Virus genome (UHGV): UHGV-0261633
Direction: 5' to 3' (one strand)
Length of the DNA: 18,805 nucleotides
From: a virus
The position numbers and the translations under genes were made by a program. The notes beneath the pieces were generated by a model. The model had not been told where the DNA came from. It was given only the letters and a program-made list of their open reading frames with translations, and ran no database searches. This document shows, in pieces, positions 1,728-18,389 of this stretch (the first letter of the stretch is position 1; the number at the start of each line of letters is the position of its first letter).

Positions 1728-1803
1728 TGGAGAATCCGAAGGGACTCGAACCCTTATAAACCTGTTTTGCAGACAGGCACATAGCCATTTCTGTCACGGA
1801 TTC
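1728..1803 (-). tRNA. tRNA-Cys (anticodon GCA)
   Basis: Hand fold: encoded CCA (tgg on + at 1728-1730), acceptor gaatccg/cggattc perfect, T-arm aaggg-actcgaa-ccctt, anticodon loop in tRNA sense CUGCAAA. Confidence 0.8.
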
Positions 1804-1807
1804 AAAT

Positions 1808-1900
1808 TGGAGGAAGATACCAGACTTGAACTGGTACACCGATTTCTCAGCTACTGGCAGTTTAGCAAACTGCTCCCTTACCTTTTAGGGTTAATCTTCC
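1808..1900 (-). tRNA. tRNA-Ser (anticodon GCU), type II
   Basis: Encoded CCA, acceptor ggaagat/atcttcc perfect, T-arm accag-acttgaa-ctggt, long variable arm, anticodon stem gcagt/actgc with loop UUGCUAA. Confidence 0.8.
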
Positions 1901-1902
1901 AT

Positions 1903-2637
1903 TTATTTCTGTAATGCGTTCTTCATTTCTGGTGTTGCAATAGTGTCAATTACACCAGTTTTACAAGCATCATCAAACCAGTCTGGTAAGATACCTGCTA
2001 AGAACCCATTGATATTCGTTTTAAGGTACTCTGCAATAAGGGCAGCTTCTTCTTCAATCATCTGCACAACTTCATCTGCATAAGCTGTAATCTTCGAGAT
2101 ACCTTCATTAATCTTACTAACAGCTTGGTTAGCTAAATCAGAAATAGTATCAAGACCTTTGTCAATAGCGTCTTGTAAGTCACTTAATACATCATTAACA
2201 CCGTCTAGTGCACTGTTAATCATATCAATAGCTTTTTGACCATACTCTGTAGCAACACCCATAATACCACTAAATGGTGTACAGCCAACTTGTTCACCTG
2301 CTGCACCCATAACATTAGAATAACCTTTTGCTACCTGCATACGTGATGAAAACTCATCAATGGACTTTTGACCGTAATCTGTCAGTGTTTTGGTAGTTGA
2401 TGTAGTGCTTGTCAGACTCGTGGTAAAGCTGTTAAGCAGAACTGTTGTAAGTCCAGCAGCAACAAGCTTATCCTTTACTGTAGGGTCTGATACAGAACTA
2501 ATAGAGCTTACAAGTGATGTAGAGGCAGCTACGGTTCCACCGAGAACTGCTGCACCAGTAATAAGGGGGTTAGAAAACCCTTTACCAGTTTTTAAGAGAT
2601 TAAAAATCTCCTTACCTTGTTCTGTCATCTCTTTCAT
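1903..2637 (-). CDS. hypothetical Ser/Thr-rich protein (~244 aa) embedded in the tRNA array
   Basis: ORF track 1903..2700, but the first 21 codons overlap tRNA-Phe and begin at a non-ATG codon; internal ATG at 2635-2637 has an AAGGTG RBS. Low-complexity S/T/A-rich N-terminal half. Confidence 0.55.
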   Translation of the reverse strand: MKEMTEQGKEIFNLLKTGKGFSNPLITGAAVLGGTVAASTSLVSSISSVSDPTVKDKLVAAGLTTVLLNSFTTSLTSTTSTTKTLTDYGQKSIDEFSSRMQVAKGYSNVMGAAGEQVGCTPFSGIMGVATEYGQKAIDMINSALDGVNDVLSDLQDAIDKGLDTISDLANQAVSKINEGISKITAYADEVVQMIEEEAALIAEYLKTNINGFLAGILPDWFDDACKTGVIDTIATPEMKNALQK

Positions 2638-2653
2638 TAAGCACCTTTGAAAT

Positions 2654-2730
2654 TGGTAGTCCAGTGGGATTTGAACCCTCTTCTCATGTTTTTCAGACAC
2701 GCGCTTTAACCATATAAGCTACTTGGACTA
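2654..2730 (-). tRNA. tRNA-Phe (anticodon GAA)
   Basis: Acceptor tagtcca/tggacta perfect, T-loop atttgaa (one mismatch in T-stem), anticodon loop CUGAAAA; 3' CCA encoding ambiguous. Confidence 0.7.
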
Positions 2731-2735
2731 TAAAT

Positions 2736-2811
2736 TGGGGTGACCTACGGGATTTGAACCCGTATAGACCATGTTCACAGCATGGGTCATTACCATTTAT
2801 GATAAGGCCAC
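2736..2811 (-). tRNA. tRNA-His (anticodon GUG)
   Basis: Encoded CCA, acceptor with one G-U, T-arm acggg-atttgaa-cccgt, anticodon stem ccatg/catgg with loop CUGUGAA. Confidence 0.8.
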
Positions 2812-2842
2812 ATTTAAGGACTCTCGTAAGAATCCTTAGAAG

Positions 2843-2918
2843 TGGCAGCGGCATAAGGATTTGAACCTTAATAAGACAGCTTCAGAGACTGCTGCATTGC
2901 CAGTTATGCTATACCGCT
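2843..2918 (-). tRNA. tRNA-Gln (anticodon CUG)
   Basis: Encoded CCA, T-arm taagg-atttgaa-cctta, D-arm gcat-tgccagtt-atgc, anticodon loop CUCUGAA. Confidence 0.75.
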
Positions 2919-2923
2919 AAATT

Positions 2924-3002
2924 TGGTACTCCATATCGGATTCGAACCGATACATAACACAGATTTTAAGTCTGGCCTCTCTGCCAATTGGAGTAATGGA
3001 GC
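2924..3002 (-). tRNA. tRNA with leucine anticodon UAA but type-I length (putative tRNA-Leu)
   Basis: Encoded CCA, discriminator A, acceptor actccat/atggagc (terminal G-U), T-arm atcgg-attcgaa-ccgat, anticodon loop CUUAAAA; about 7-nt variable loop, no long arm. Confidence 0.55.
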
Positions 3003-3004
3003 AT

Positions 3005-3080
3005 TGGCGGGGGATGTTGGAATTGAACCAACTTCTTCGATTTCAAAGACCGAGGTTTTAACCTTGTAAACTAATCCCCT
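3005..3080 (-). tRNA. tRNA-Gln (anticodon UUG)
   Basis: Encoded CCA, T-arm gttgg-aattgaa-ccaac, anticodon loop CUUUGAA. Confidence 0.75.
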
Positions 3081-3088
3081 TTAAATCT

Positions 3089-3646
3089 TTACTTTCTCAG
3101 TGGATGAATAAAGAATGCCAACATAACTCTTTCCCTTGAGAATGCTCTTTCTTCTGGGACAACACTTTTTAGCTTCCATCCAACATAAATTCTCCAGTAG
3201 AATTGTTTACCAAAGACTTTAATTGATGGGATAAAAGCGAATAATCCCCAAGCATTACTGTTCCACATTAGGAGATAACCTGTCTGATTATCTTCAGGGT
3301 CAGAACTTACGTTGATATTGCCTTTCCACTTAGTAACATCTTTTACATCTCTTCCTAACACATGGTAAGAGAAGTTATAAGCTTTGTTTCTCCAGAGCCA
3401 TCCAACTCTCTGCAAATAGACACCAAGCTTACCAATCTTTCTAATCTTAGCCCATCTTTTAACGTGACCTTCATCACCATCAATCGGGTTGTCATATGTC
3501 TCCATCCATCTGAATCCAAAAGGTAAGTGTCCTTTCTTCTCACTGTAAAATGGAACTACAAAAGGTGCTAAGATAACTGCTAAGATTGCTGCCAATGGTT
3601 CTAGCAAAGCTAAGAAAATCCATGAAGCATACTTCAAGTATCTCAT
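3089..3646 (-). CDS. hypothetical membrane protein (185 aa) embedded in the tRNA array
   Basis: ORF track; AGAGG RBS about 9 nt upstream; hydrophobic N-terminal segment IFLALLEPLAAILAVILAPFVVPF, Trp-rich remainder. Confidence 0.6.
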   Translation of the reverse strand: MRYLKYASWIFLALLEPLAAILAVILAPFVVPFYSEKKGHLPFGFRWMETYDNPIDGDEGHVKRWAKIRKIGKLGVYLQRVGWLWRNKAYNFSYHVLGRDVKDVTKWKGNINVSSDPEDNQTGYLLMWNSNAWGLFAFIPSIKVFGKQFYWRIYVGWKLKSVVPEERAFSRERVMLAFFIHPLRK

Positions 3647-3665
3647 TTAAATAGCCTCTTTAAAT

Positions 3666-3741
3666 TGGCGCAGGATAAGGGATTCGAACCCCTATTAACA
3701 GCTTCGTAGACTGTTGCTCTATCCATTTGAACTAATCCTGC
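3666..3741 (-). tRNA. tRNA-Arg (anticodon ACG)
   Basis: Encoded CCA, acceptor gcaggat/atcctgc perfect, T-arm aaggg-attcgaa-cccct, anticodon loop CUACGAA. Confidence 0.8.
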
Positions 3742-3855
3742 TTACCTACAAGAACACCATACAGTTTTTCACAAGAGTTGTTTTTACGCCTGTTTTTGAA
3801 TGACGCTATAAACTTTTTTGCAATTGATTTATTACTCATAGTGTTCTCCTAAAAT

Positions 3856-3933
3856 TGGTGTTCCAAGACGGATTCGAACCGTCACTAGTACAAGGTTTGA
3901 GCTTGCATCCTCTGCCAATTGGGATACTGGAAC
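3856..3933 (-). tRNA. tRNA with leucine anticodon CAA but type-I length (putative tRNA-Leu)
   Basis: Reverse complement GUUCCAG-UA-UCC..GGA-U-GCAAG-CUCAAAC-CUUGU-ACUAGU-GACGG-UUCGAAU-CCGUC-UUGGAAC-A-CCA; 6-nt variable loop, discriminator A. Confidence 0.55.
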
Positions 3934-3934
3934 A

Positions 3935-4009
3935 TGGTACTCACTAAAGGACTTGAACCTTTTTCTTCATCTTGTAAGGGTGATGTTTTACCATATAAAC
4001 TAAGCGAGT
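3935..4009 (-). tRNA. tRNA-Val (anticodon UAC)
   Basis: Encoded CCA, T-arm aaagg-acttgaa-ccttt, anticodon loop CUUACAA. Confidence 0.75.
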
Positions 4010-4011
4010 AT

Positions 4012-4102
4012 GAAAGAGGTCTGAAGTTGTGCCGCTAACTCAACTCCGTGGGATTTGTTACGGTCTTCAGTTGACTCAAAGCGGTCTTTCACTTGACCTC
4101 TA
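4012..4102 (-). ncRNA. tRNA-sized structured element without a canonical T-loop (possible tRNA-like RNA or degenerate tRNA)
   Basis: Outer stem agaggt (4015-4020) / acctct (4096-4101), inner stem ctgaag (4021-4026) / cttcag (4065-4070), internal hairpin ccgt..acgg (4046-4063); no GTTCGAAUC motif in either orientation. Strand not determined from sequence. Confidence 0.3.
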
Positions 4103-4105
4103 AAT

Positions 4106-4181
4106 TGGTGCTCCCACAAGGATTCGAACCCTGATAAGTTACTTACAAGGCAACCGTAATAGCCAATTATACGATAGGAGC
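4106..4181 (-). tRNA. tRNA-Thr (anticodon UGU)
   Basis: Reverse complement GCUCCUA-UC-GUAU-AAUUGGCUA-UUAC-G-GUUGC-CUUGUAA-GUAAC-..-CAGGG-UUCGAAU-CCUUG-UGGGAGC-A-CCA. Confidence 0.8.
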
Positions 4182-4188
4182 ATTAATT

Positions 4189-4263
4189 TGGAGCATCCAG
4201 AGGGAATCGAACCCTCAACCTCAGTTTGGAAGACTGTAATTTTCCCGTTTAAACTATGGATGC
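4189..4263 (-). tRNA. tRNA-Gly (anticodon UCC)
   Basis: Encoded CCA, acceptor gcatcca/tggatgc perfect, T-arm gaggg-aatcgaa-ccctc, anticodon loop CUUCCAA. Confidence 0.8.
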
Positions 4264-4269
4264 ACTAAT

Positions 4270-4345
4270 TGGTGGAGTCACCGAGAATTGAACTCGGTTC
4301 CCAAGTTTGCAAAACTCGAATTTTAACCATATAAACTATGACCCC
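4270..4345 (-). tRNA. tRNA-Ala (anticodon UGC)
   Basis: Encoded CCA, T-arm ccgag-aattgaa-ctcgg, anticodon loop UUUGCAA. Confidence 0.8.
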
Positions 4346-4351
4346 ATTGTT

Positions 4352-4427
4352 TGGTACAGGTGGAGGGAATTGAACCCATCGTCTTACTGATTAAGAGTCA
4401 GCCGCATAACCATTTTGCTACACCTGC
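4352..4427 (-). tRNA. tRNA-Lys (anticodon CUU)
   Basis: Encoded CCA, acceptor with terminal G-U, T-loop aattgaa (T-stem only 3 clean pairs), anticodon loop CUCUUAA; paralogous in outline to the tRNA at 5656-5731. Confidence 0.7.
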
Positions 4428-4434
4428 ATTAATT

Positions 4435-4512
4435 TGGTAGGAGACAAGGGATTCGAACCCTCAAACACCAACTTCTAAGGATGGTAGGTTTACCAATTAC
4501 CGTCAATCTCCC
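4435..4512 (-). tRNA. tRNA with leucine anticodon UAG but type-I length (putative tRNA-Leu)
   Basis: Encoded CCA, discriminator A, acceptor 7 pairs with two G-U, T-arm aaggg-attcgaa-ccctc, anticodon stem CCAUC/GUUGG (one mismatch) with loop CUUAGAA; D-arm poorly paired. Confidence 0.5.
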
Positions 4513-4593
4513 ATTAAATCTTTTTAGAGAACTTCTAAGAACCTAAGCAACAAGGTTCCACAACAAGCTGTAATAACCTTAGAAGCCCTCTAA

Positions 4594-4613
4594 AAAGACC
4601 TAAATAGGTCTTT
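4594..4613. other. AT-rich hairpin in array spacer (weak terminator-like)
   Basis: aaagacc-taaata-ggtcttt flanked by A/T runs; orientation and function unclear. Confidence 0.25.
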
Positions 4614-4767
4614 GCATAGTCTTGTTTAATCCGGTGACTAGAACCTTTGGAGAGCTTGATATTATCTCTTCTCCGTGACACCTACTAGGTGCTTTGACAG
4701 TGTACGACAATACACGAGGGATACCAAAGCAACATCCAAATGAAGCTTGGCTTTAAATCTTATTAGG

Positions 4768-4855
4768 CGGTAAGTAAAGGAGTCGAACCCTCACCGTATC
4801 TCTACAGTGGCAACTGTTTTCAAGACAGTTTGGCTACCATTAGCCGCTACCTACC
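4768..4855 (-). tRNA. tRNA-Ser (anticodon UGA), type II
   Basis: T-arm aaagg-agtcgaa-ccctc, ~20-nt variable region, anticodon stem actgt/acagt with loop CUUGAAA, acceptor ggtaagt/acctacc with one G-U; CCA apparently not encoded. Confidence 0.65.
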
Positions 4856-4868
4856 CCTAATAAGACTT

Positions 4869-4951
4869 TGGCATGGGACGGAGGAGTTGAACCCCTTTGA
4901 AACGGTTTTGGAGGCCGTTGCTCATGCCTTAGAGTCTTAACATCGTCCCAT
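4869..4951 (-). tRNA. tRNA-Trp (anticodon CCA)
   Basis: Encoded CCA, acceptor atgggac/gtcccat perfect, T-arm ggagg-agttgaa-cccct, anticodon loop CUCCAAA; D-region longer than canonical. Confidence 0.6.
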
Positions 4952-5093
4952 ATTATAATTCGAAGCTTACCCTGTTATCTCAACACTGTCAAGCTTCTTC
5001 TCAGATTATTTACATGTTCTGGAAAACATGAGATACAGACCACCTCCCTACAGGAAGACCCGCTAAGGCCGTCTAAGTAATCTGCTAACTATT

Positions 5094-5175
5094 TGGTCGA
5101 GGCGGCAGGACTCGAACCCGCATACTCCACTTACTCGGTTAACGGCGGTTTAGAAGACCGCTGAGATACGCCCCG
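5094..5175 (-). tRNA. tRNA-Arg-like (anticodon UCU) with non-canonical body
   Basis: Encoded CCA, acceptor cgaggcg/cgccccg, T-arm gcagg-actcgaa-cccgc, perfect anticodon arm GCGGU-CUUCUAA-ACCGC; but only 7 nt between acceptor and anticodon stem (no room for a D-arm) and 23 nt between anticodon and T arms. Confidence 0.45.
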
Positions 5176-5423
5176 TAATTATCTTTAAAGACTCTCTTAG
5201 AAAGCCCTTAAAGATGCCCACCTTATTAATCATACCGTGGGCGAGTACGCCAAATTCTTTAATGAGGGATTGGAAGACCTCACTGGTGTTTAGCCTATCA
5301 AGCTACTGCCAGAAAAACATTGTCGTTTGCATTTATTTTAAATTTGCAAAATAGACGCTACGCAACGAAAACTAAGGTTACTATAAAGTAGTCACATCTC
5401 AATGTCAACAACTTTATTGAAAT

Positions 5424-5498
5424 TGGTTGTAGGTGAGGGTATCGAACCCTCTTCTAACGGTTATCAGCCGTTTGCATTACCATTTATGCTAACCCACA
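5424..5498 (-). tRNA. tRNA-Ile (anticodon GAU)
   Basis: Encoded CCA, T-arm gaggg-tatcgaa-ccctc, D-arm gcat-taccattt-atgc, anticodon stem aacgg/ccgtt with loop CUGAUAA. Confidence 0.8.
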
Positions 5499-5500
5499 AT

Positions 5501-5577
5501 TGGAGGTTCAGATGGGAATCGAACCCACATTCATAGGGCTTATGAAACCCCTGCATTACCTTATCTGCGACTGAACC
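5501..5577 (-). tRNA. tRNA-Met (anticodon CAU), elongator-like acceptor
   Basis: Encoded CCA, acceptor ggttcag/ctgaacc perfect, T-arm atggg-aatcgaa-cccac, anticodon stem GGGGU/GCCCU with loop UUCAUAA. Confidence 0.7.
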
Positions 5578-5655
5578 AGAATAAGTACCCTAGTTAGAGA
5601 AACTGTTGAGTGGGTGTTTCCAGCCGCGCAGGTGTTTCTCAGTTAAGGGTGAATT

Positions 5656-5731
5656 TGGTAGAAGTGGAGGGATTCGAACCCATCGCCTGTCAGATTAAAA
5701 GTCTGCCGCATCACCATTCTGCTACACTTCC
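5656..5731 (-). tRNA. tRNA-Lys (anticodon UUU)
   Basis: Encoded CCA, acceptor with terminal G-U, T-loop attcgaa, anticodon loop CUUUUAA. Confidence 0.7.
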
Positions 5732-5736
5732 ATTAA

Positions 5737-5876
5737 ATTATCTTTGTAGATAAGCTACCCAGACTTGCTTAAGGTCTGTAGCGATGTGCCTTTTGGGTTT
5801 AAATCTAGAATTTACCCTTCACCCTTTGTGGTCGCATACTCACAGGTAAGCTTAATAACTTATCTACAAAGATAAT
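5737..5876. repeat. 18-bp perfect inverted repeat flanking a 104-bp ORF-free segment
   Basis: attatctttgtagataag (5737-5754) is the exact reverse complement of cttatctacaaagataat (5859-5876). Confidence 0.85.
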
Positions 5877-5920
5877 TACCAGACCGTTGTTTATCATCTT
5901 AAGTGCTACCATTACACCAA

Positions 5921-5975
5921 CTCGACATCTGCCGAGTGAAGGAATCGAACCTTCGCCTTTTCTTTACCGGAGAAA
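5921..5975 (-). other. tRNA fragment-like element (canonical T-arm plus one hairpin, no matching acceptor 5' strand)
   Basis: T-arm gaagg-aatcgaa-ccttc (5938-5954) and hairpin tttct-ttaccgg-agaaa (5958-5974); no complementary acceptor strand found downstream. Confidence 0.3.
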
Positions 5976-5990
5976 TAGATTGTTTAAGTT

Positions 5991-6018
5991 TTGCTGTAAA
6001 CGGTCTTCTGTAAATTTG
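5991..6018. repeat. 28-bp exact direct repeat, copy 1 (ttgctgtaaacggtcttctgtaaatttg)
   Basis: Identical 28-mer at 6471-6498; degenerate copies at about 6078-6097 and 6638-6658. Confidence 0.85.
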
Positions 6019-6130
6019 TTGAGCCAGACCAAGTTTTAAATTTTCAAAATTAAATTGGCTTGAAATTTCATACATTCTTGCTGTATTTGGTCTTCTGCTC
6101 CTTTAAAGAATACTCGTAAGAACTCTTTAA

Positions 6131-6153
6131 GGGAGGGGCTAAATAGCCCTCTC
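6131..6153. other. GC-rich hairpin gggaggggct-aaat-agccctctc
   Basis: Shares the 15-mer ggggctaaatagccc with a hairpin at 18364-18378. Confidence 0.5.
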
Positions 6154-6158
6154 AAAAT

Positions 6159-6235
6159 TGGCGGCTACGATGAGACTTGAACTCACATCATCTCCCGTGA
6201 CAGGGGAGTATTTTCTCCAGTTAAACTACATAGCC
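6159..6235 (-). tRNA. tRNA-Asp (anticodon GUC)
   Basis: Encoded CCA, T-arm atgag-acttgaa-ctcac, anticodon stem ctccc/gggag perfect with loop CUGUCAC. Confidence 0.8.
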
Positions 6236-6240
6236 TTTAT

Positions 6241-6328
6241 TGGTGTGCCGTGTAGGAGTCGAACCTACCGAGTCTCAATGACAAGGGATTTACAGTCCCC
6301 ACCGCTACCATCTACGGGATAACGACAC
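6241..6328 (-). tRNA. tRNA-Tyr (anticodon GUA), type II
   Basis: Encoded CCA, T-arm gtagg-agtcgaa-cctac, ~15-nt variable region, anticodon loop CUGUAAA. Confidence 0.75.
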
Positions 6329-6336
6329 ATTTAATT

Positions 6337-6413
6337 TGGCGGTTAGTCAGGGATTCGAACCCTGTGCCATTCGCTTAACAGGCGACCGCACATACCTTAT
6401 GTGCTTCCTAACC
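6337..6413 (-). tRNA. tRNA-Asn (anticodon GUU)
   Basis: Encoded CCA, T-arm caggg-attcgaa-ccctg, D-arm gcac-ataccttat-gtgc, anticodon loop CUGUUAA. Confidence 0.75.
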
Positions 6414-6470
6414 ATGTTTAGTATTACCAGACCGTATCTTTCAATTTTTCCGCTAAAAATTTAATAAGTA

Positions 6471-6498
6471 TTGCTGTAAACGGTCTTCTGTAAATTTG
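6471..6498. repeat. 28-bp exact direct repeat, copy 2, abutting the 3' end of a tRNA-Met gene
   Basis: Identical to 5991-6018. Confidence 0.85.
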
Positions 6499-6573
6499 GA
6501 GGCGGGTGCAGGAGTCGAACCTGCCGATACCATGCTAATGAGACATGTGAGACGCCCTTTCTCTATACCCGCA
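6497..6573 (-). tRNA. tRNA-Met (anticodon CAU), possibly initiator-type or tRNA-Ile2
   Basis: Encoded CCA, T-arm gcagg-agtcgaa-cctgc perfect, anticodon stem CAUGU/GCAUG with loop CUCAUUA, D-arm gaga-cgccctt-tctc; position 1-72 appears unpaired. Confidence 0.65.
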
Positions 6574-6664
6574 ATTCTTAATGACCAGACCAAATCTCTT
6601 CTTTGTCCGATTTACCTTCAGATGAATAAGATTAAGTTTGCTGTAATTGGTCTTCTGTCAAAAC

Positions 6665-6742
6665 TGGCGTTCCAGAAGGGATTTGAACCCTCAAATATCC
6701 ACTTTGAAAGAGTGGTGACTTTACCATTTTGTCTACTGGAAC
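6665..6742 (-). tRNA. tRNA-Glu (anticodon UUC)
   Basis: Encoded CCA, acceptor gttccag/ctggaac perfect, T-arm aaggg-atttgaa-ccctc, anticodon stem ccact/agtgg with loop CUUUCAA. Confidence 0.8.
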
Positions 6743-6749
6743 ATTAATT

Positions 6750-6826
6750 TGGTCTCTGTTGGAGGACTTGAACCTCCGGCCTTACCGCCCCAAACGGAAC
6801 GCTCTACCAAGCTGAGCTAAACAGAG
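6750..6826 (-). tRNA. tRNA-Pro (anticodon UGG)
   Basis: Encoded CCA, acceptor ctctgtt/aacagag perfect, T-arm ggagg-acttgaa-cctcc, D-arm gctc-taccaagct-gagc, anticodon loop UUUGGGG. Confidence 0.8.
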
Positions 6827-6991: not shown

Positions 6992-8407
6992 TTACCAGAT
7001 ATAACGGTCAATCATTACTGCTTTGAGCATTACGCTGATTGGGTCAAACTTCTCACCACTAAGCAGAGCTTTTAAAGTGGCTGGAGAGAAACCAGATACC
7101 ATTGCTACACCGTTATCCTTAACAGATACTTCGCAAGTACCATTACGGTTTGCTAAGTACCAGAATACCAGTTGTGGCATCTCATATCCAGCTTTTTTGT
7201 ACTTACTCTGAATTGCTTCAAAGTTTGTACGACCGTTAGCTCCATCAACCTGATTGAACTCCATATCGGAGAAGATGATAAGCTTACTTGGCATATCTTT
7301 CTGAGTCAAGTTGTTTCTTTTACCTGTTTCAAGAATGCGGTCAAAAGCTGCTTGTAAGTTAGTTGAGCCATATTCAACGTGTCGCATCACCTGACGATGA
7401 CGGTTTCGTAAATCACCACTCAGTTCGATGAAGTGAGGGTTTGTCGAATAAACCATCAACTCATTCTTAAAGCAACCTGTATTGCGTTCTGCTACATACA
7501 AGGCAAGTGATACACCAATATCCAGAGCAGTAATGGAGCCAAAATTCACCCAAGACATTGAACTTGATACATCAGACATACACAAGATGTTTTCACCTTC
7601 TGCCATCCAGTTTGGTAGTGCTTTCCACTGCTCATTAGCAACATCTGCATTACCATACTTGACAGATTTAATCACATCGTATGGGTAAACAGCACCAGCG
7701 TTAATCTTAGTCTCACCTTTTGATAAGGACTCGATGTAAGCTTTGTAACGCTCTCCATCTTTACGGTTAAACAGTTTTTGGTAACGTGCAGCAGCAAGTG
7801 AAGGAATCTTACTGTAGTCAATCTTACCAAACTCATTAGCAGAGATTTTTTGCTCAACTGTATCAGATAGTGCAGACAACAGTGTGCGGTACTCTTTCTC
7901 ACTCAAGTTGGCAAACTTGCAGAAACGTTTTACAAACTGCTTATGACGTGGTTTGACTCGTGGTAACCACTTAGCCGCCAAACCTGCTGTTGCAGGGTCT
8001 AGTAATGCTGCTTCTAAATGTTTGAAGGCATCTGTCTCGAAACGAGTACCTACGAAGATTTTGAAGTCATCAAAACGACCAAGTTCTGCAATCTTATCCA
8101 TAATGCGAAGAACCTGTGTAGGCTCTAAAACTTTATCTTCAATTGCTTGAAGCAAAACAGTTCTGAAGGCTTTACGCTCACCCATACCTTCTCGTACATC
8201 TCGCATATGCAGTAAAATACGAACTGCAACATCAACATCCTCACGCAAAGCTTTGTAGAACAGGTCTGGTAAGATTTCTACATTGCTACGGCTTGAACCA
8301 GCAGCTTTGTAAAAGTCTACAAGAGCAGACATTGATGAAGTATGGTTTACAGCACCATTTTCAGTTCGACCTGCATGAAGGTGCGCATGTTTAAATAATT
8401 CGCTCAT
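6992..8407 (-). CDS. von Willebrand factor A (vWA/MIDAS) domain protein, 471 aa, with ~270-aa helical N-terminal domain
   Basis: ORF track; C-terminal half has a DxSxS MIDAS motif (ILCMSDVSSSMS) and a vWA-like hhhhSD motif (KLIIFSDMEFNQ); GAGAG RBS. Domain call is from motif recognition only. Confidence 0.8.
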   Translation of the reverse strand: MSELFKHAHLHAGRTENGAVNHTSSMSALVDFYKAAGSSRSNVEILPDLFYKALREDVDVAVRILLHMRDVREGMGERKAFRTVLLQAIEDKVLEPTQVLRIMDKIAELGRFDDFKIFVGTRFETDAFKHLEAALLDPATAGLAAKWLPRVKPRHKQFVKRFCKFANLSEKEYRTLLSALSDTVEQKISANEFGKIDYSKIPSLAAARYQKLFNRKDGERYKAYIESLSKGETKINAGAVYPYDVIKSVKYGNADVANEQWKALPNWMAEGENILCMSDVSSSMSWVNFGSITALDIGVSLALYVAERNTGCFKNELMVYSTNPHFIELSGDLRNRHRQVMRHVEYGSTNLQAAFDRILETGKRNNLTQKDMPSKLIIFSDMEFNQVDGANGRTNFEAIQSKYKKAGYEMPQLVFWYLANRNGTCEVSVKDNGVAMVSGFSPATLKALLSGEKFDPISVMLKAVMIDRYIW

Positions 8408-8860: not shown

Positions 8861-9035
8861 TGGTATGCCTCTTATAAGACCTCTTAAAAGGCTTTTAAGA
8901 TAAAAGATAGATATCCAGAAAGATATCTGTTTAAATAGCCTTTTTAGAGGAACCTTTTAAGTTATCTTCTAAGTATTTATAAGCCTACACCTTGTCAAGT
9001 ACTTTGTCAACAACTTTTTTAACTTGCAATAGTTC

Positions 9036-9064
9036 TTGACTTGTTGTATGGATTACTGTACCAT
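9036..9064 (+). promoter_or_regulatory. candidate sigma70-like promoter for the plus-strand gene block
   Basis: TTGACT (9036-9041), 17-nt spacer, TACCAT (9059-9064), in the divergent intergenic region 8861-9109. Confidence 0.3.
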
Positions 9065-9109
9065 CTTACTTAAAGCTGTAGGTCTGCCTTGTTCTACAAA
9101 GGAGACTTA

Positions 9110-9271
9110 ATGAGAAAATCAAATAACCCGAAGAAAGGTAAAAATACCAATCACTGTAAGGAATCAAAAAGGGTAGAGTTACTCTACTATTCATCCTCTG
9201 AAATTGGTCTGTACCTGTTCTTTCAAAATTACAGAAGACAAGAGGATTATCTATGTGTAGTTCCCAATTAG
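9110..9271 (+). CDS. hypothetical small basic protein (53 aa from internal ATG)
   Basis: ORF track 9089..9271 starts at TTG; ATG at 9110 has an AAGGAGA RBS. Confidence 0.35.
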   Translation: MRKSNNPKKGKNTNHCKESKRVELLYYSSSEIGLYLFFQNYRRQEDYLCVVPN

Positions 9272-14931: not shown

Positions 14932-15007
14932 CTGTATGTGTTCGTTTTGCAATCGCTGAAATGATTAACAAGGCAATCTTGAAAGATGCCTATGGAGAAA
15001 CTAAGTA

Positions 15008-15232
15008 ATGATTAAGACACCTGTACCAATTTTTGGATTTCCTTCTATAGAAGAGTTCAAAGTTTATCTTGACAAAAACTTCTACAATGAGCAGCCTGTT
15101 ACTTTACTGAAGAGTGACTTATCAGAGCTTCTTGATATGGTTATTAAGGCAACTTCTGAGAAGGAGCCTGAGCAGAAAGCTGAGAAGAAGACTAGTAAGA
15201 AATCCGACAAGAAGACTGAAAAGTCTGAGTAA
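15008..15232 (+). CDS. hypothetical protein (74 aa) with Lys/Glu-rich C-terminal tail
   Basis: ORF track. Confidence 0.55.
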   Translation: MIKTPVPIFGFPSIEEFKVYLDKNFYNEQPVTLLKSDLSELLDMVIKATSEKEPEQKAEKKTSKKSDKKTEKSE

Positions 15233-15240
15233 TAACTTGA

Positions 15241-15262
15241 GGGGTTACTTGATAGCCCCTTT
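15241..15262 (+). terminator. GC hairpin terminator
   Basis: ggggtta-cttga-tagcccc then ttt. Confidence 0.55.
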
Positions 15263-15286
15263 GTAGAAACTTAGAAGGTAGCGAAT

Positions 15287-16182: not shown

Positions 16183-16731
16183 ATGGAAAAAGATAACTTA
16201 AAAGAAGTTGAAGGTAACTACCTAGTCCTTGACTGGAATGATATTCGTGGAGCACTCTACGAAGAAAGCCTTAATAGGTTAGAACAAATTATCTTTGCAG
16301 TACGGGGTTACAGAGAGGTTCAAAATGGTAAAGACCCACTTGAAGGAATCTTTGTAGAGAAGTCTTATCCGTTCTATGAAGACACTTTGCAGAAAGTTAA
16401 GATGCACTTTAAACAGAAGAACCGTAAAGTGGTCACTATGGTATCTCTTGGTGGACAGAGTATGTCTGTGATGGAAGATATCAACCCTAAGAGACCGAGT
16501 AAAGGCGTTTGTATAAAAATCACAGGTCATGAAGAGTATATCTCAGTAGATGACTTTAGAGCATTCTGTAGTGGTTCTTGTGTCTTTAATGGTTTTCACT
16601 ATGATATCCGAGTGTACCCAATCAAGGGAGATGATATCATGATGCAGGTATTCGATAATAACAATGGATTTACTCATTTTTATCAGACAACCAAGTCATC
16701 ATTGAAAACAGTTCTGGAAACACTGATTTAA
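16183..16731 (+). CDS. hypothetical protein (182 aa from internal ATG; ORF opens at 16138)
   Basis: ORF track 16138..16731; start uncertain (16138 overlaps upstream gene by 32 nt). Confidence 0.6.
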   Translation: MEKDNLKEVEGNYLVLDWNDIRGALYEESLNRLEQIIFAVRGYREVQNGKDPLEGIFVEKSYPFYEDTLQKVKMHFKQKNRKVVTMVSLGGQSMSVMEDINPKRPSKGVCIKITGHEEYISVDDFRAFCSGSCVFNGFHYDIRVYPIKGDDIMMQVFDNNNGFTHFYQTTKSSLKTVLETLI

Positions 16732-16742
16732 AATATCTTAAG

Positions 16743-16766
16743 AGCCTCCTTAATCGGGGGCTTTTT
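16743..16766 (+). terminator. rho-independent terminator closing the plus-strand gene block
   Basis: agcctcc-ttaatc-gggggct then ttttt. Confidence 0.75.
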
Positions 16767-16835
16767 AATTTTTATAAAATTTATCGGTTGTCCCAACCGC
16801 TGGGTCACCATCATATGTGAATAAAATATCTACCC

Positions 16836-17850
16836 TTCTTAACAACCTTCTTAATCTTACTCTCTATATAGTTATATAGTACTATATAGTATCTTAGTAT
16901 CTATCTAGTGGTCTTAATAGCCCCTCTGTATAGTCCTTCTAAACACTCTTCTAACAAGCCTTCTTAACAACCTATACAATCACCTTAACCATACCTCTAC
17001 ACCCTCTTAGAAGCCCCTATACACCTCTTAATCTCTAGGTTAGCTATGTTACCCTCTATAGGTGTTCACTAGGTACTACTAAACCTCTATATAGACTGTT
17101 TTAACAAACTTAACAGGAATATCTTCACAGACCTTATCTCACAAGGTCTAACACGGTACTAACAAGGTATCTTATAAGCCTGTTATTACCTGTATTTTTA
17201 AAAGACTGTATAGGTAATTATTCAGAATTTTAAAATTTTTATAAAATAGGGCTATCAAGTCATTTTTTAGGGTCTTTGAAGGAACTGAAAAATATCTGTA
17301 GAAGATGTATATCTGCTTGGTAGCCCTTAACAGCCCCCTTACAAGTACTTTGCAAAATTTTAAAATATCCTTAACAATCTCTTAACAGCTACTACAGCCT
17401 CTTAACATCTCTTCAGAGGTCTTAACAGATTCTTAACAGAACTAACAAGGTTGTAACAAGTTCTTAACAGTCGATACATGGTCTTTACAGAGTCTTAACA
17501 GATGACTAACAAGAGCTAACAAGTTAATTTTTAAGAGTTATTTTGTTAAGATAATTAACAAGTCTCTAACAAGTGTTTAATCTTTTTAACAAGCTATTAA
17601 CATGGTCACTACTCTTTTCTTATCGTTCCCTTTGCTTCTTAGTGATTCTTTAAACATACCTCTTAAAAGCTCTCTATAGCTCCTTGTAAGCTCTTTTAAG
17701 TCTCTTCCTAGTATTTACCCCCCAACTGTACAGATAGCTCTTTATAGGGCTTTACAGGAGCTTTTAAGGCTATGTCAAAGACTCTTACAAGGCTTTTACG
17801 TGGTCTTAACAGAGATTTAACAAGGGGCTAACAAGTTGCTAACAAGTGCC
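16836..17850. repeat. array of short direct repeats (core TTAACAR / CTAACAAG), iteron-like
   Basis: At least 20 copies by eye, e.g. 17381, 17401, 17421, 17433, 17442, 17453, 17463, 17494, 17506, 17516, 17555, 17566, 17586, 17805, 17817, 17828, 17839; many spacings of 9-12 bp; no ORF of 60 aa or more in any frame across 16732-18380. Confidence 0.75.
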
Positions 17851-18324
17851 TTAAAAGCATAACTATGTAGGGTTTGTTAAGAAATTGTTAAGAAAATGTT
17901 AAGGGGGCTAGCATTTACGTAACTTTTAAGCTACTTCAAAGTAACTTTATAGCCCCTATAACATACTTTAAAGGAACTACCAAGCCCTTTTTAGTAGTTC
18001 ACAAGAATACTAACGAGATGATAAAGCTTACACCCTTATAAGATTCTTCTAAGGCTCTGGGAAGCTCTATAAAGGGCTTTTTAGAGTGGGTTAATGCAAT
18101 CCCTTAAGTTAGGTTGATAAGGCTGTTATAGGGCTTTATAGAGCGTTTAAATGGTTGCCCTTCCCTTTCGGGTTATGGGCTTTTATTTAAGTTGATTTGA
18201 TAAGAGGTTATAGAGTAGACTATAGAGTTATTGCTTTTAAGGTACGGGATAGATTCTATCGAATTAGTGGGATAGATTCTGGAAAGGGAAGGGAAAGGGT
18301 TGTATAGAGGCTATTACAGAGACG

Positions 18325-18351
18325 TAAAAAAGCCCCTATGAGAAAGGGGCT
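18325..18351 (-). terminator. rho-independent terminator (minus strand) downstream of the 82-aa gene
   Basis: agcccct-atgagaa-aggggct preceded on + by aaaaaa, giving a U-tract on the minus strand. Confidence 0.7.
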
Positions 18352-18363
18352 GTAAAGGTATCT

Positions 18364-18379
18364 GGGGCTAAATAGCCCC
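18364..18379. other. GC hairpin ggggc-taaata-gcccc
   Basis: Shares the 15-mer ggggctaaatagccc with 6136-6150. Confidence 0.5.
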
Positions 18380-18389
18380 GTTGCGTCGA

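Follow-up and report, generated by a model that had tools for sequence, protein, structure and literature searches.

The window analysed here is a stretch of 18,805 nucleotides from the virus genome UHGV-0261633. It contains a non-coding gap of 1658 bp (16732-18389) between two convergent gene blocks, and strings of the type CTATAG recur throughout this gap. What are these strings? The original prediction, made from the letters and open reading frames (ORFs) alone, described them as scattered palindromic motifs that could be sites of a dimeric protein or promoter-like elements, distinct from the TTAACA repeats of the same region. All ten strings quoted there are present, at 16862-18310. Our analysis shows that the enriched unit is an asymmetric TATAG motif, one flavour of an 8-bp box found 67 times in the gap, and that the boxes fill and flank a region homologous to the mapped terminal repeats of related phages.

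To judge from its sequence, the window belongs to a Felixounavirus (Felix O1-like myovirus). The gap matches 257 phage records near full length, at about 80-93% identity (megablast). They belong to phages of Escherichia, Salmonella, Shigella and Citrobacter, members of the genus Felixounavirus or relatives of it, which the annotated records place in the Ounavirinae. Across 24 relatives, gap identity is 90-94%. The gap is AT-rich (24-41% GC), with minima of 24-25% GC at 17150-17299 and 17500-17599, and contains no ORF of more than 36 amino acids. Several GenBank records annotate two to six small 'hypothetical proteins' within this ORF-poor junction, which are probably over-calls.

Enrichment of TATAG in the gap

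On the + strand, 15 of the 25 copies of TATAG in the window lie inside the gap. The density elsewhere in the window predicts about 1.16 (Poisson p = 2e-12), and that of the 88-kb genome of KhF2, a close relative, predicts 1.15. Base composition does not explain the excess: 2000 dinucleotide-preserving shuffles of the gap give 4.5±2.0 copies, with a maximum of 12. The longer form CTNTATAG has 16 matches on both strands of the window (3.5±2.1 in shuffles), 15 of them inside the gap, and all 10 of its + strand copies are in the gap, where about 0.4 would be expected. KhF2 likewise carries 10 + strand copies in the gap and 6 in the other 86.6 kb.

An unbiased ranking of k-mers leads to the same motif. 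The most over-represented 5-mer is TATAG to the left of the terminal repeat described below (7 copies vs 0.39 expected) and again TATAG to its right (6 vs 0.32), while within the repeat it is TAACA (20 vs 0.78). The left flank has four copies of TATAGT and the right flank four copies of TATAGAG. The motifs are thus a non-random trait of this non-coding DNA, as had been proposed.

The same cannot be said of the hexamer that had been named. The exact palindrome CTATAG occurs 6 times in the window, where 5.4 copies are expected, and 3 times in the gap, a number reached by 272 of 2000 local shuffles (mean 1.26). A C directly precedes only 3 of the 15 TATAG copies, and 10 of them have CT two bases further upstream. 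Since CTATAG is not enriched and so few copies of TATAG follow a C, the enriched unit is the asymmetric (CTN)TATAG and not the self-complementary hexamer.

A common 8-bp box and its lattice

The TATAG motifs fit a more general 8-bp frame, CTNNNNAG (CT-N4-AG), which is found 67 times in the gap, compared with 11.8±3.3 (maximum 25) in shuffles and about 16-18 in stretches of the same length from the rest of the genome. The spacing within the frame is strict: CT-N3-AG (2 copies) and CT-N5-AG (5 copies) are depleted relative to the roughly 12 expected. The consensus of the boxes is about tCTTWAnAG. When the sequence is cut after every AG, nearly the whole gap falls into units of 10-12 bp ending in ...C-T-(T/A)-(A/T)-N-(A/T)-A-G.

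The boxes are arranged on a lattice. From one box to the next, the distance is 10-12 bp in 26 of 66 intervals and 20-23 bp in a further 11. In three genera, the distances between AG dinucleotides have their maxima at 11, 21-23 and 32-33 bp. Many local arrays with a period of 10-11 bp are reported independently by Tandem Repeats Finder. The box starts are most strongly in phase at 10.5 bp within the repeat (a value matched in 11 of 1000 random placements) and at 11.1 bp for the right flank (in none of 1000).

The TTAACA repeats use the same frame, mainly as CTTAACAG and CTAACAAG (eight copies each), and the box classes are linked by single-step intermediates: CTTAACAG, CTTTACAG, CTTTATAG and CTCTATAG. 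Both types also stand side by side on the lattice. The two TATAG-type boxes found within the repeat on the + strand (17672-17747), CTCTATAG at 17672 and CTTTATAG at 17740, are kept in 22-23 of 24 relatives and sit in runs of CTNNNNAG spaced 10, 11, 10, 11 and 14, 10, 11 bp, respectively. The former run consists of CTTAAAAG (17662), CTCTATAG (17672), CTTGTAAG (17683), CTTTTAAG (17693) and CTTCCTAG (17704). Another run, at 17923, 17934 and 17945 (the last being CTTTATAG), has spacings of 11 and 11 bp. The shared frame, the shared lattice and the intermediates indicate that the TATAG motifs are one flavour of a common CT-N4-AG box and not a separate system. What had been described as scattered motifs are indeed spread over the gap, each taking its place on a 10-12-bp lattice held in common with the other repeats; their distinctness from the TTAACA repeats is reduced to one of position.

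The symmetry of the box was examined as well, with a palindromic operator for a dimeric protein as the candidate. Only the outer CT and AG are symmetric. Perfect palindromes occur in 7 box interiors, and 7.5 are predicted from the column frequencies. The dimer-site form of the original prediction therefore finds no support, either in the hexamer or in the boxes.

The gap and the genome termini

The position of the box types becomes meaningful when the gap is compared with phages whose ends are known. The annotated 618-bp direct terminal repeat (DTR) of Salmonella phage UAB_69 aligns to 17317-17910 at 89% identity (sensitive blastn; record annotation). Phage UAB_Phi87 has a 608-bp terminal repeat, established experimentally with Bal31 digestion and run-off sequencing (PMC4837284), but its GenBank record does not begin at a physical end, and the UAB_69 annotation was therefore used for mapping. 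Terminal repeats have been reported via PhageTerm for H12 and E9 (PMC11737134), and a 581-bp repeat for Pr103Blw (PMC8303462). Several GenBank records also start or stop inside the gap (sensitive blastn): those of H12, E9, CRP22 and NBEco005 open at about 17908 (17908/17909 for H12 and NBEco005), and the SPT-1 contig ends at about 17913. Given this homology to annotated and experimentally mapped DTRs, the gap probably holds the physical genome ends, and the window reads as a concatemer junction with a single, collapsed copy of a repeat of about 594 bp. The gap had been correctly read as non-coding; the terminal repeat within it had gone unnoticed.

The predicted DTR (17317-17910) contains mostly TAACA-type boxes. 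To its left, a unique flank (16732-17316) with 18 boxes is rich in the TATAG type and has a pyrimidine-rich + strand; in the virion it would lie just inside the right-end copy of the repeat. The right unique flank (17911-18389), with boxes of the types TATAGAG and TATAGGG and a G-rich + strand, would lie just inside the left-end copy. The repeat is delimited by two boundary blocks. The left block (17306-17325), within which the repeat starts at about 17317, includes TGTATATCTGCTT (17306-17318), invariant in three genera. The right block, AATGTTAAGGGGGCTA|GC (17895-17912, with AATGTWAARGKGGCTA at 17895-17910), is conserved in the same way. Both blocks are invariant or nearly so in Felixounavirus, Mooglevirus and Kolesnikvirus, and the Erwinia phages can hardly be aligned to the remainder of the gap.

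Three inverted TAACA boxes on the - strand (TGTTAAG three times, 17875-17903) abut the right boundary of the repeat with a spacing of 11 bp. All the remaining TAACA boxes in the repeat point the opposite way, except for one at 17544. The inverted trio is conserved in the Mooglevirus Mordin and partly in the Erwinia phages.

The DTRs of UAB_Phi87, UAB_69 and Pr103Blw thus share with the window a homologous central 594 bp and conserved boundary blocks. The papers and records on them that we read give the repeat and its length, and neither a box lattice nor flank motifs; the automated 'repeat_region' features in some Felixounavirus records span fragments only. GenBank records of this phage group have been opened at many arbitrary positions, and some split the gap across the record ends.

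Partition of box types and conservation among relatives

The distribution of the two motifs follows the repeat, with TAACA-type boxes within it and TATAG-type boxes, as CTNTATAG and TTATAGRG, in the unique DNA to either side. TATAG occurs 7 times in the left flank, twice in the repeat and 6 times in the right flank; the corresponding numbers for TAACA are 7, 20 and 1 (Fisher p = 3.7e-4). The same partition is present in all 26 genomes examined, with means of 6.2, 2.5 and 5.5 for TATAG and 7.0, 20.5 and 1.5 for TAACA. The flank motifs are also oriented: TATAGRG occurs 0 times on the + strand and 4 times on the - strand in the left flank, and 5 and 2 times, respectively, in the right flank, so that, in small numbers, it tends to point away from the repeat on both sides.

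Conservation is concentrated in the boxes. Per-base conservation is 0.95-0.97 in the TATAG motifs and 0.89 in their surroundings; by position, it is 0.90-0.95 within the box and 0.80-0.85 in the 3-bp spacers. Overall it amounts to 0.924 in boxes and 0.870 outside them, a difference reached by 10 of 5000 circular shifts. In Mordin, which is 73% identical over the gap, 11 of the 15 TATAG copies are kept, compared with 37% of random 5-mers (95th percentile 60%), and 19 copies are present in total (5.5±2.1 in shuffles). Such a pattern fits recognition by a protein, one of the possibilities raised in the original prediction.

The Erwinia phages phiEa104 and SE5 (Kolesnikvirus) keep the position of the gap, the boundary blocks, the TAACA boxes (which in phiEa104 lie in the inferred repeat) and the 11-bp periodicity of AG. 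TATAG is not enriched in them (3 copies vs 1.8). They carry instead 12 copies of the motif TTAGAA(G) (1.5±1.1 in shuffles). All 12 belong to the right flank, where they are grouped in twos or threes at distances of 10-12 bp. This arrangement mirrors the pairs TTATAGGG/TTTATAGAG and TTATAGAG/CTATAGAG of the window. An architecture that persists while the motif changes is what would be expected of a co-evolving protein-DNA recognition pair.

Comparison with other repeat arrays

The closest known likeness is found in phage T7. In the T7 ends that we read, CCTAAAG-type units spaced 13 bp apart (175-333) come after the 160-bp repeat on the left, and a similar array containing CCTATAGAG and CCTATAGGG precedes the repeat on the right (about 39600-39770). 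These arrays were reportedly named SRL and SRR by Dunn & Studier in 1983. In both phages, a short motif ending in AG is arrayed in unique non-coding DNA that directly adjoins a short exact terminal repeat on both sides, with some copies inside it; here TATAG is the top 5-mer in both flanks.

The differences are substantial. The T7 unit CCTAAAG has the form CT-N2-AG, with about 12 copies per side, whereas the boxes described here have the form CT-N4-AG, are spaced 10-12 bp apart, number about 67 over 1.5 kb including the 594-bp repeat, and differ in flavour inside and outside it. The T7 junction has phage-RNA-polymerase promoters and that of the window has none. T7 is moreover a podovirus, unrelated to this Ounavirinae myovirus. 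Since unit, spacing, extent and phage lineage all differ, the T7 arrays are an analogue and not members of the same family. The T7 concatemer junction, placed on a plasmid with a T7 replication origin, is reported, through the cited title of Chung & Hinkle 1990, to allow packaging into transducing particles (PMC13236587), and it has been used as the packaging signal of T7 phagemids (PMC13236587). The mechanism of this packaging class is described as poorly understood (PMC13595956).

Two further systems share parts of the arrangement. The gap has an order of magnitude more boxes than the small-terminase regions of lambda and SPP1, and no site for integration host factor (IHF) was found in it; terminase binding is putative here. 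In those phages, several short repeated sites (the R sites of lambda cosB, the pacL/pacR boxes of SPP1) flank the cleavage position and are bound by oligomeric small terminase, with 3 to about 7 sites per region and often with the aid of IHF. The parC locus of plasmid R1 consists of about ten well-conserved 11-bp iterons beside the par genes, bound by ParR. As in parC, the units recur with about every helical turn, an arrangement on which a protein could polymerise along one face of the DNA; the boxes of the gap differ in being degenerate and in having no partition gene nearby, and the phage is lytic.

Possible functions of the box array

We infer the function of the array from its lattice, its partition, its conservation and the likeness to T7. 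On this basis, the chances are about even that it acts in cis, as a protein-binding or architectural array through which the termini are recognized and the DNA is packaged. The CT-N4-AG lattice would bind a sequence-recognizing protein, for which the most plausible candidates are the small terminase subunit and an accessory packaging factor. With boxes at intervals of about one helical turn, an oligomer could coat the junction or wrap it. Each flank array would label its own side of the repeat ('outside left' or 'outside right'), the box flavours and the two boundary blocks would show the terminase where the repeat begins and ends, and cuts at 17317 and 17910, made while concatemers are packaged, would duplicate the repeat in the manner of T7-type phages.

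A bolder version, which we hold to be fairly improbable, takes the whole 1.5-kb junction as the nucleoprotein lattice of a 'phage telomere'. A putative Ounavirinae protein would polymerize on the roughly 67 boxes, and box flavour would serve as a positional code that sets the two terminase cuts and co-evolves between genera, with TAACA inside the repeat, CTNTATAG outside on the left and TATAGRG (TTAGAAG in Erwinia phages) outside on the right. The same protein might act at two divergent promoter regions, coupling early transcription and packaging.

Several observations weigh against a packaging array. Several TATAG copies are missing from about half of the relatives. Over long distances the boxes keep phase only moderately well, and the phase of the left flank is not significant (reached by 87 of 1000 random placements). 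The genes flanking the gap have no Pfam match and belong to PHROG families of unknown function, so no candidate binding protein is found there. Smaller clusters of 6-7 boxes are present in both divergent promoter regions, at 8871-8973 of the window and at 52697-52837 of KhF2. They carry CTTATAAG, CTTAAAAG, CTTTTAAG and CTGTATAG at 9-14-bp spacing (regions 8861-9253 of the window and 52689-52924 of KhF2, the latter being positions 7689-7924 of locus L032). This suggests that a box-binding factor also acts at early or late promoter regions, and such a factor could be generally architectural or regulatory and not specific to packaging. Finally, a role of the boxes in packaging is something that we infer, and to our knowledge the T7 arrays have no proven role either; the literature that we searched on the function of those arrays yielded nothing useful.

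In a different reading, the array binds a general protein, encoded by the phage or supplied by the host (H-NS, Fis or HU), that coats AT-rich intergenic control regions and, at the genome ends, serves the insulation or silencing of transcription, protection of the ends or control of DNA entry, and not packaging. The box clusters at both divergent promoters, the AT-rich composition of the gap and its location between two convergent operons all agree with such a role. We nevertheless regard it as rather unlikely: the density at the junction (67 boxes in 1.66 kb) is far above that of the promoter clusters, the inside/outside partition tracks the repeat boundaries, the gap has no IHF consensus, and its A-tracts are as dense as in coding DNA and show no significant phasing, so that classical curvature by A-tracts is unsupported. 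The partition also bears on a second possibility, that the boxes are iterons of a phage replication origin or belong to a priming or recombination-dependent replication start at the genome ends. T7-type terminal repeats take part in concatemer formation during replication, and tandem, helically spaced repeats beside AT-rich minima resemble origins composed of iterons and an unwinding element. A perfect 12-bp AT palindrome, AATTTTAAAATT, at 17226-17237 adds to this resemblance; it is located inside the most AT-rich stretch (17150-17299), about 80 bp outside the left boundary of the repeat, and could be an unwinding or hairpin element. Against an origin stand the lack of an excess of DnaA boxes in the window (46 vs 55.6, with one exact match near the gap), the absence of a recognizable initiator gene in the adjacent DNA, a number of boxes over 1.5 kb that far exceeds typical iteron sets, and the switch of flavour exactly at the repeat boundaries; we hold an origin to be quite improbable.

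The boxes might also be non-functional relics of replication slippage or unequal exchange in a dispensable spacer, their families reflecting only that duplicated units have a common ancestor. The gap does have local tandem arrays and polymorphic indels, and the loss of some TATAG copies in about half of the relatives is in keeping with this reading. The gap is, however, at least as conserved within the genus as the neighbouring protein (79-95% amino-acid identity), the boxes are better conserved than the spacers, the N4 frame is strict with N3 and N5 depleted, and both architecture and lattice persist in genera that can no longer be aligned. Pure slippage is hard to reconcile with this conservation pattern and strict frame, and we consider it very unlikely. 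Least of all do we expect promoters. TATAG could form -10-like elements (TATAGT/TATAGG) for the host RNA polymerase, or sites of a phage-modified polymerase, from which non-coding or antisense RNAs are made; TATAGT occurs four times in the left flank, TTAACA fits five of the six positions of the -35 consensus, and TATAGG and TATAGT were predicted as -10 hexamers elsewhere in the Felix O1 genome (PMC3185647). Yet a search for sigma-70 promoters (-35 and -10 elements 16-18 bp apart) gave 7 hits in the gap compared with 5.3±2.0 in shuffles, none with TATAG as the -10 element and none with a downstream ORF of more than 36 amino acids. Promoters of the T7/SP6 type for single-subunit RNA polymerases (...CACTATAG...) find no support either, the bases just upstream of TATAG being variable; KhF2 has no annotated phage RNA polymerase, and according to its genome paper Felix O1 lacks one (PMC3185647). 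The divergent promoter region of the window (about 8861-9253) has no TATAG, and an Rfam scan of the gap gave best matches of 24.8 and 20.2 bits, compared with gathering scores of 55 and 79. Transcription converges on the gap and is presumably terminated at both edges. The + strand block of small genes ends at 16731 and is followed by an intrinsic terminator (16740-16765, +; hairpin of -14.5 kcal/mol, z = -3.4, then a T-run) that is annotated as such in KhF2, and the - strand gene running from 18638 to 18390 is followed by one at 18351-18331 (-). The promoter-like elements of the original prediction are thus highly improbable, and a packaging array remains our preferred reading.

Novelty and possible uses

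The terminal repeat of Felixounavirus was already known. The box lattice, the CT-N4-AG frame, the inside/outside partition and the motif switch in Erwinia phages appear to be new: we found no description of the boxes in the literature and GenBank annotations on Felix O1-type phages, and a description elsewhere in the literature is possible. Felix O1-type phages are widely used in the typing of Salmonella and E. coli, in biocontrol, as reporter phages and in therapy. The map of the junction offers targets (the two conserved boundary blocks, the inner TAACA lattice and the outer TATAG arrays) for mapping of packaging signals, for the construction of phagemids that can be packaged or of transducing particles, and for rebooting or engineering genomes in ways that leave packaging intact. 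The junction elements also help to open and annotate assemblies at their true termini. The change of the flank motif between genera, from TATAGAG to TTAGAAG with the architecture intact, is a natural specificity-swap experiment.

Individual boxes and other features of the gap

In the left flank, the TATAG motifs form two clusters. Cluster 1 (16864-16933) consists of CTATATAG, TTATATAG, CTATATAG and CTGTATAG in a local tandem array of 8-10 bp, for which Tandem Repeats Finder gives periods of 8, 10 and 18; all 24 relatives retain its first three TATAG copies. Cluster 2 (17014-17094), composed of CCCCTATACACC, CCCTCTATAGG and CCTCTATATAG, is kept in 23-24 of 24. A further + strand box, CTGTATAG at 17206-17213, adjoins the AT-rich minimum of the gap and is kept in 12 of 24.

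Conservation is uneven in the right flank. The sequence CTTTATAGCCCCTATAA (17945-17961) belongs to repeat family D6. At 18064-18074, GCTCTATAAAG represents CTTTATAG on the - strand and is poorly conserved (3 of 23 relatives). The two pairs of boxes on the + strand are much better preserved: TTATAGGG (18126) and TTTATAGAG (18136), 10 bp apart within 18122-18144, are kept in 22-23 of 23 relatives, with Tandem Repeats Finder periods of 10-11, and TTATAGAG (18208) and CTATAGAG (18220), 12 bp apart within 18208-18227, in 23 of 23. The last TATAG box, TGTATAGAGG (18301-18310, +), is kept in 11 of 23.

Between the two pairs, a stable conserved hairpin on the + strand (18146-18191; -16.2 kcal/mol, z = -3.35) is followed by CUUUUAUUU. 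It resembles a terminator or a structured DNA or RNA element, and there is no obvious transcript for it to terminate. Further to the right, the direct repeat GGGATAGATTCT occurs twice, 23 bp apart, at 18246-18280. Both copies are in the sole poorly conserved patch of the gap (per-column conservation about 0-0.2), and the pair looks like an indel-polymorphic duplication among the relatives.

Other features of the window

The genome-wide scan for CTNNNNAG boxes gave a high score to only one coding region, a 74-aa ORF at 15008-15232 (+). The corresponding cluster of boxes at 14974-15273 was rejected as an array, being the Lys/Glu/Ser-rich C-terminal coding tail of this ORF with its AAG and GAG codons.

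A near-identical element of 22 bp is present in both divergent intergenic regions, as CCTTGTCAAGTACTTTGTCAAC in the window (8990-9010) and as CCTTGTCAAGTGCATTGTCAAC in KhF2 (about 52868-52890). It includes a pair of TTGTCAA repeats at a distance of 12 bp and might serve both regions as an operator or promoter element.

The window also carries 25 tRNA genes, clustered on the - strand at 1728-6826. They include two tRNA-Met, three tRNA-Leu and two each for Ser, Gln and Lys, and a tRNA cluster of such content is typical of Felix O1-like phages.

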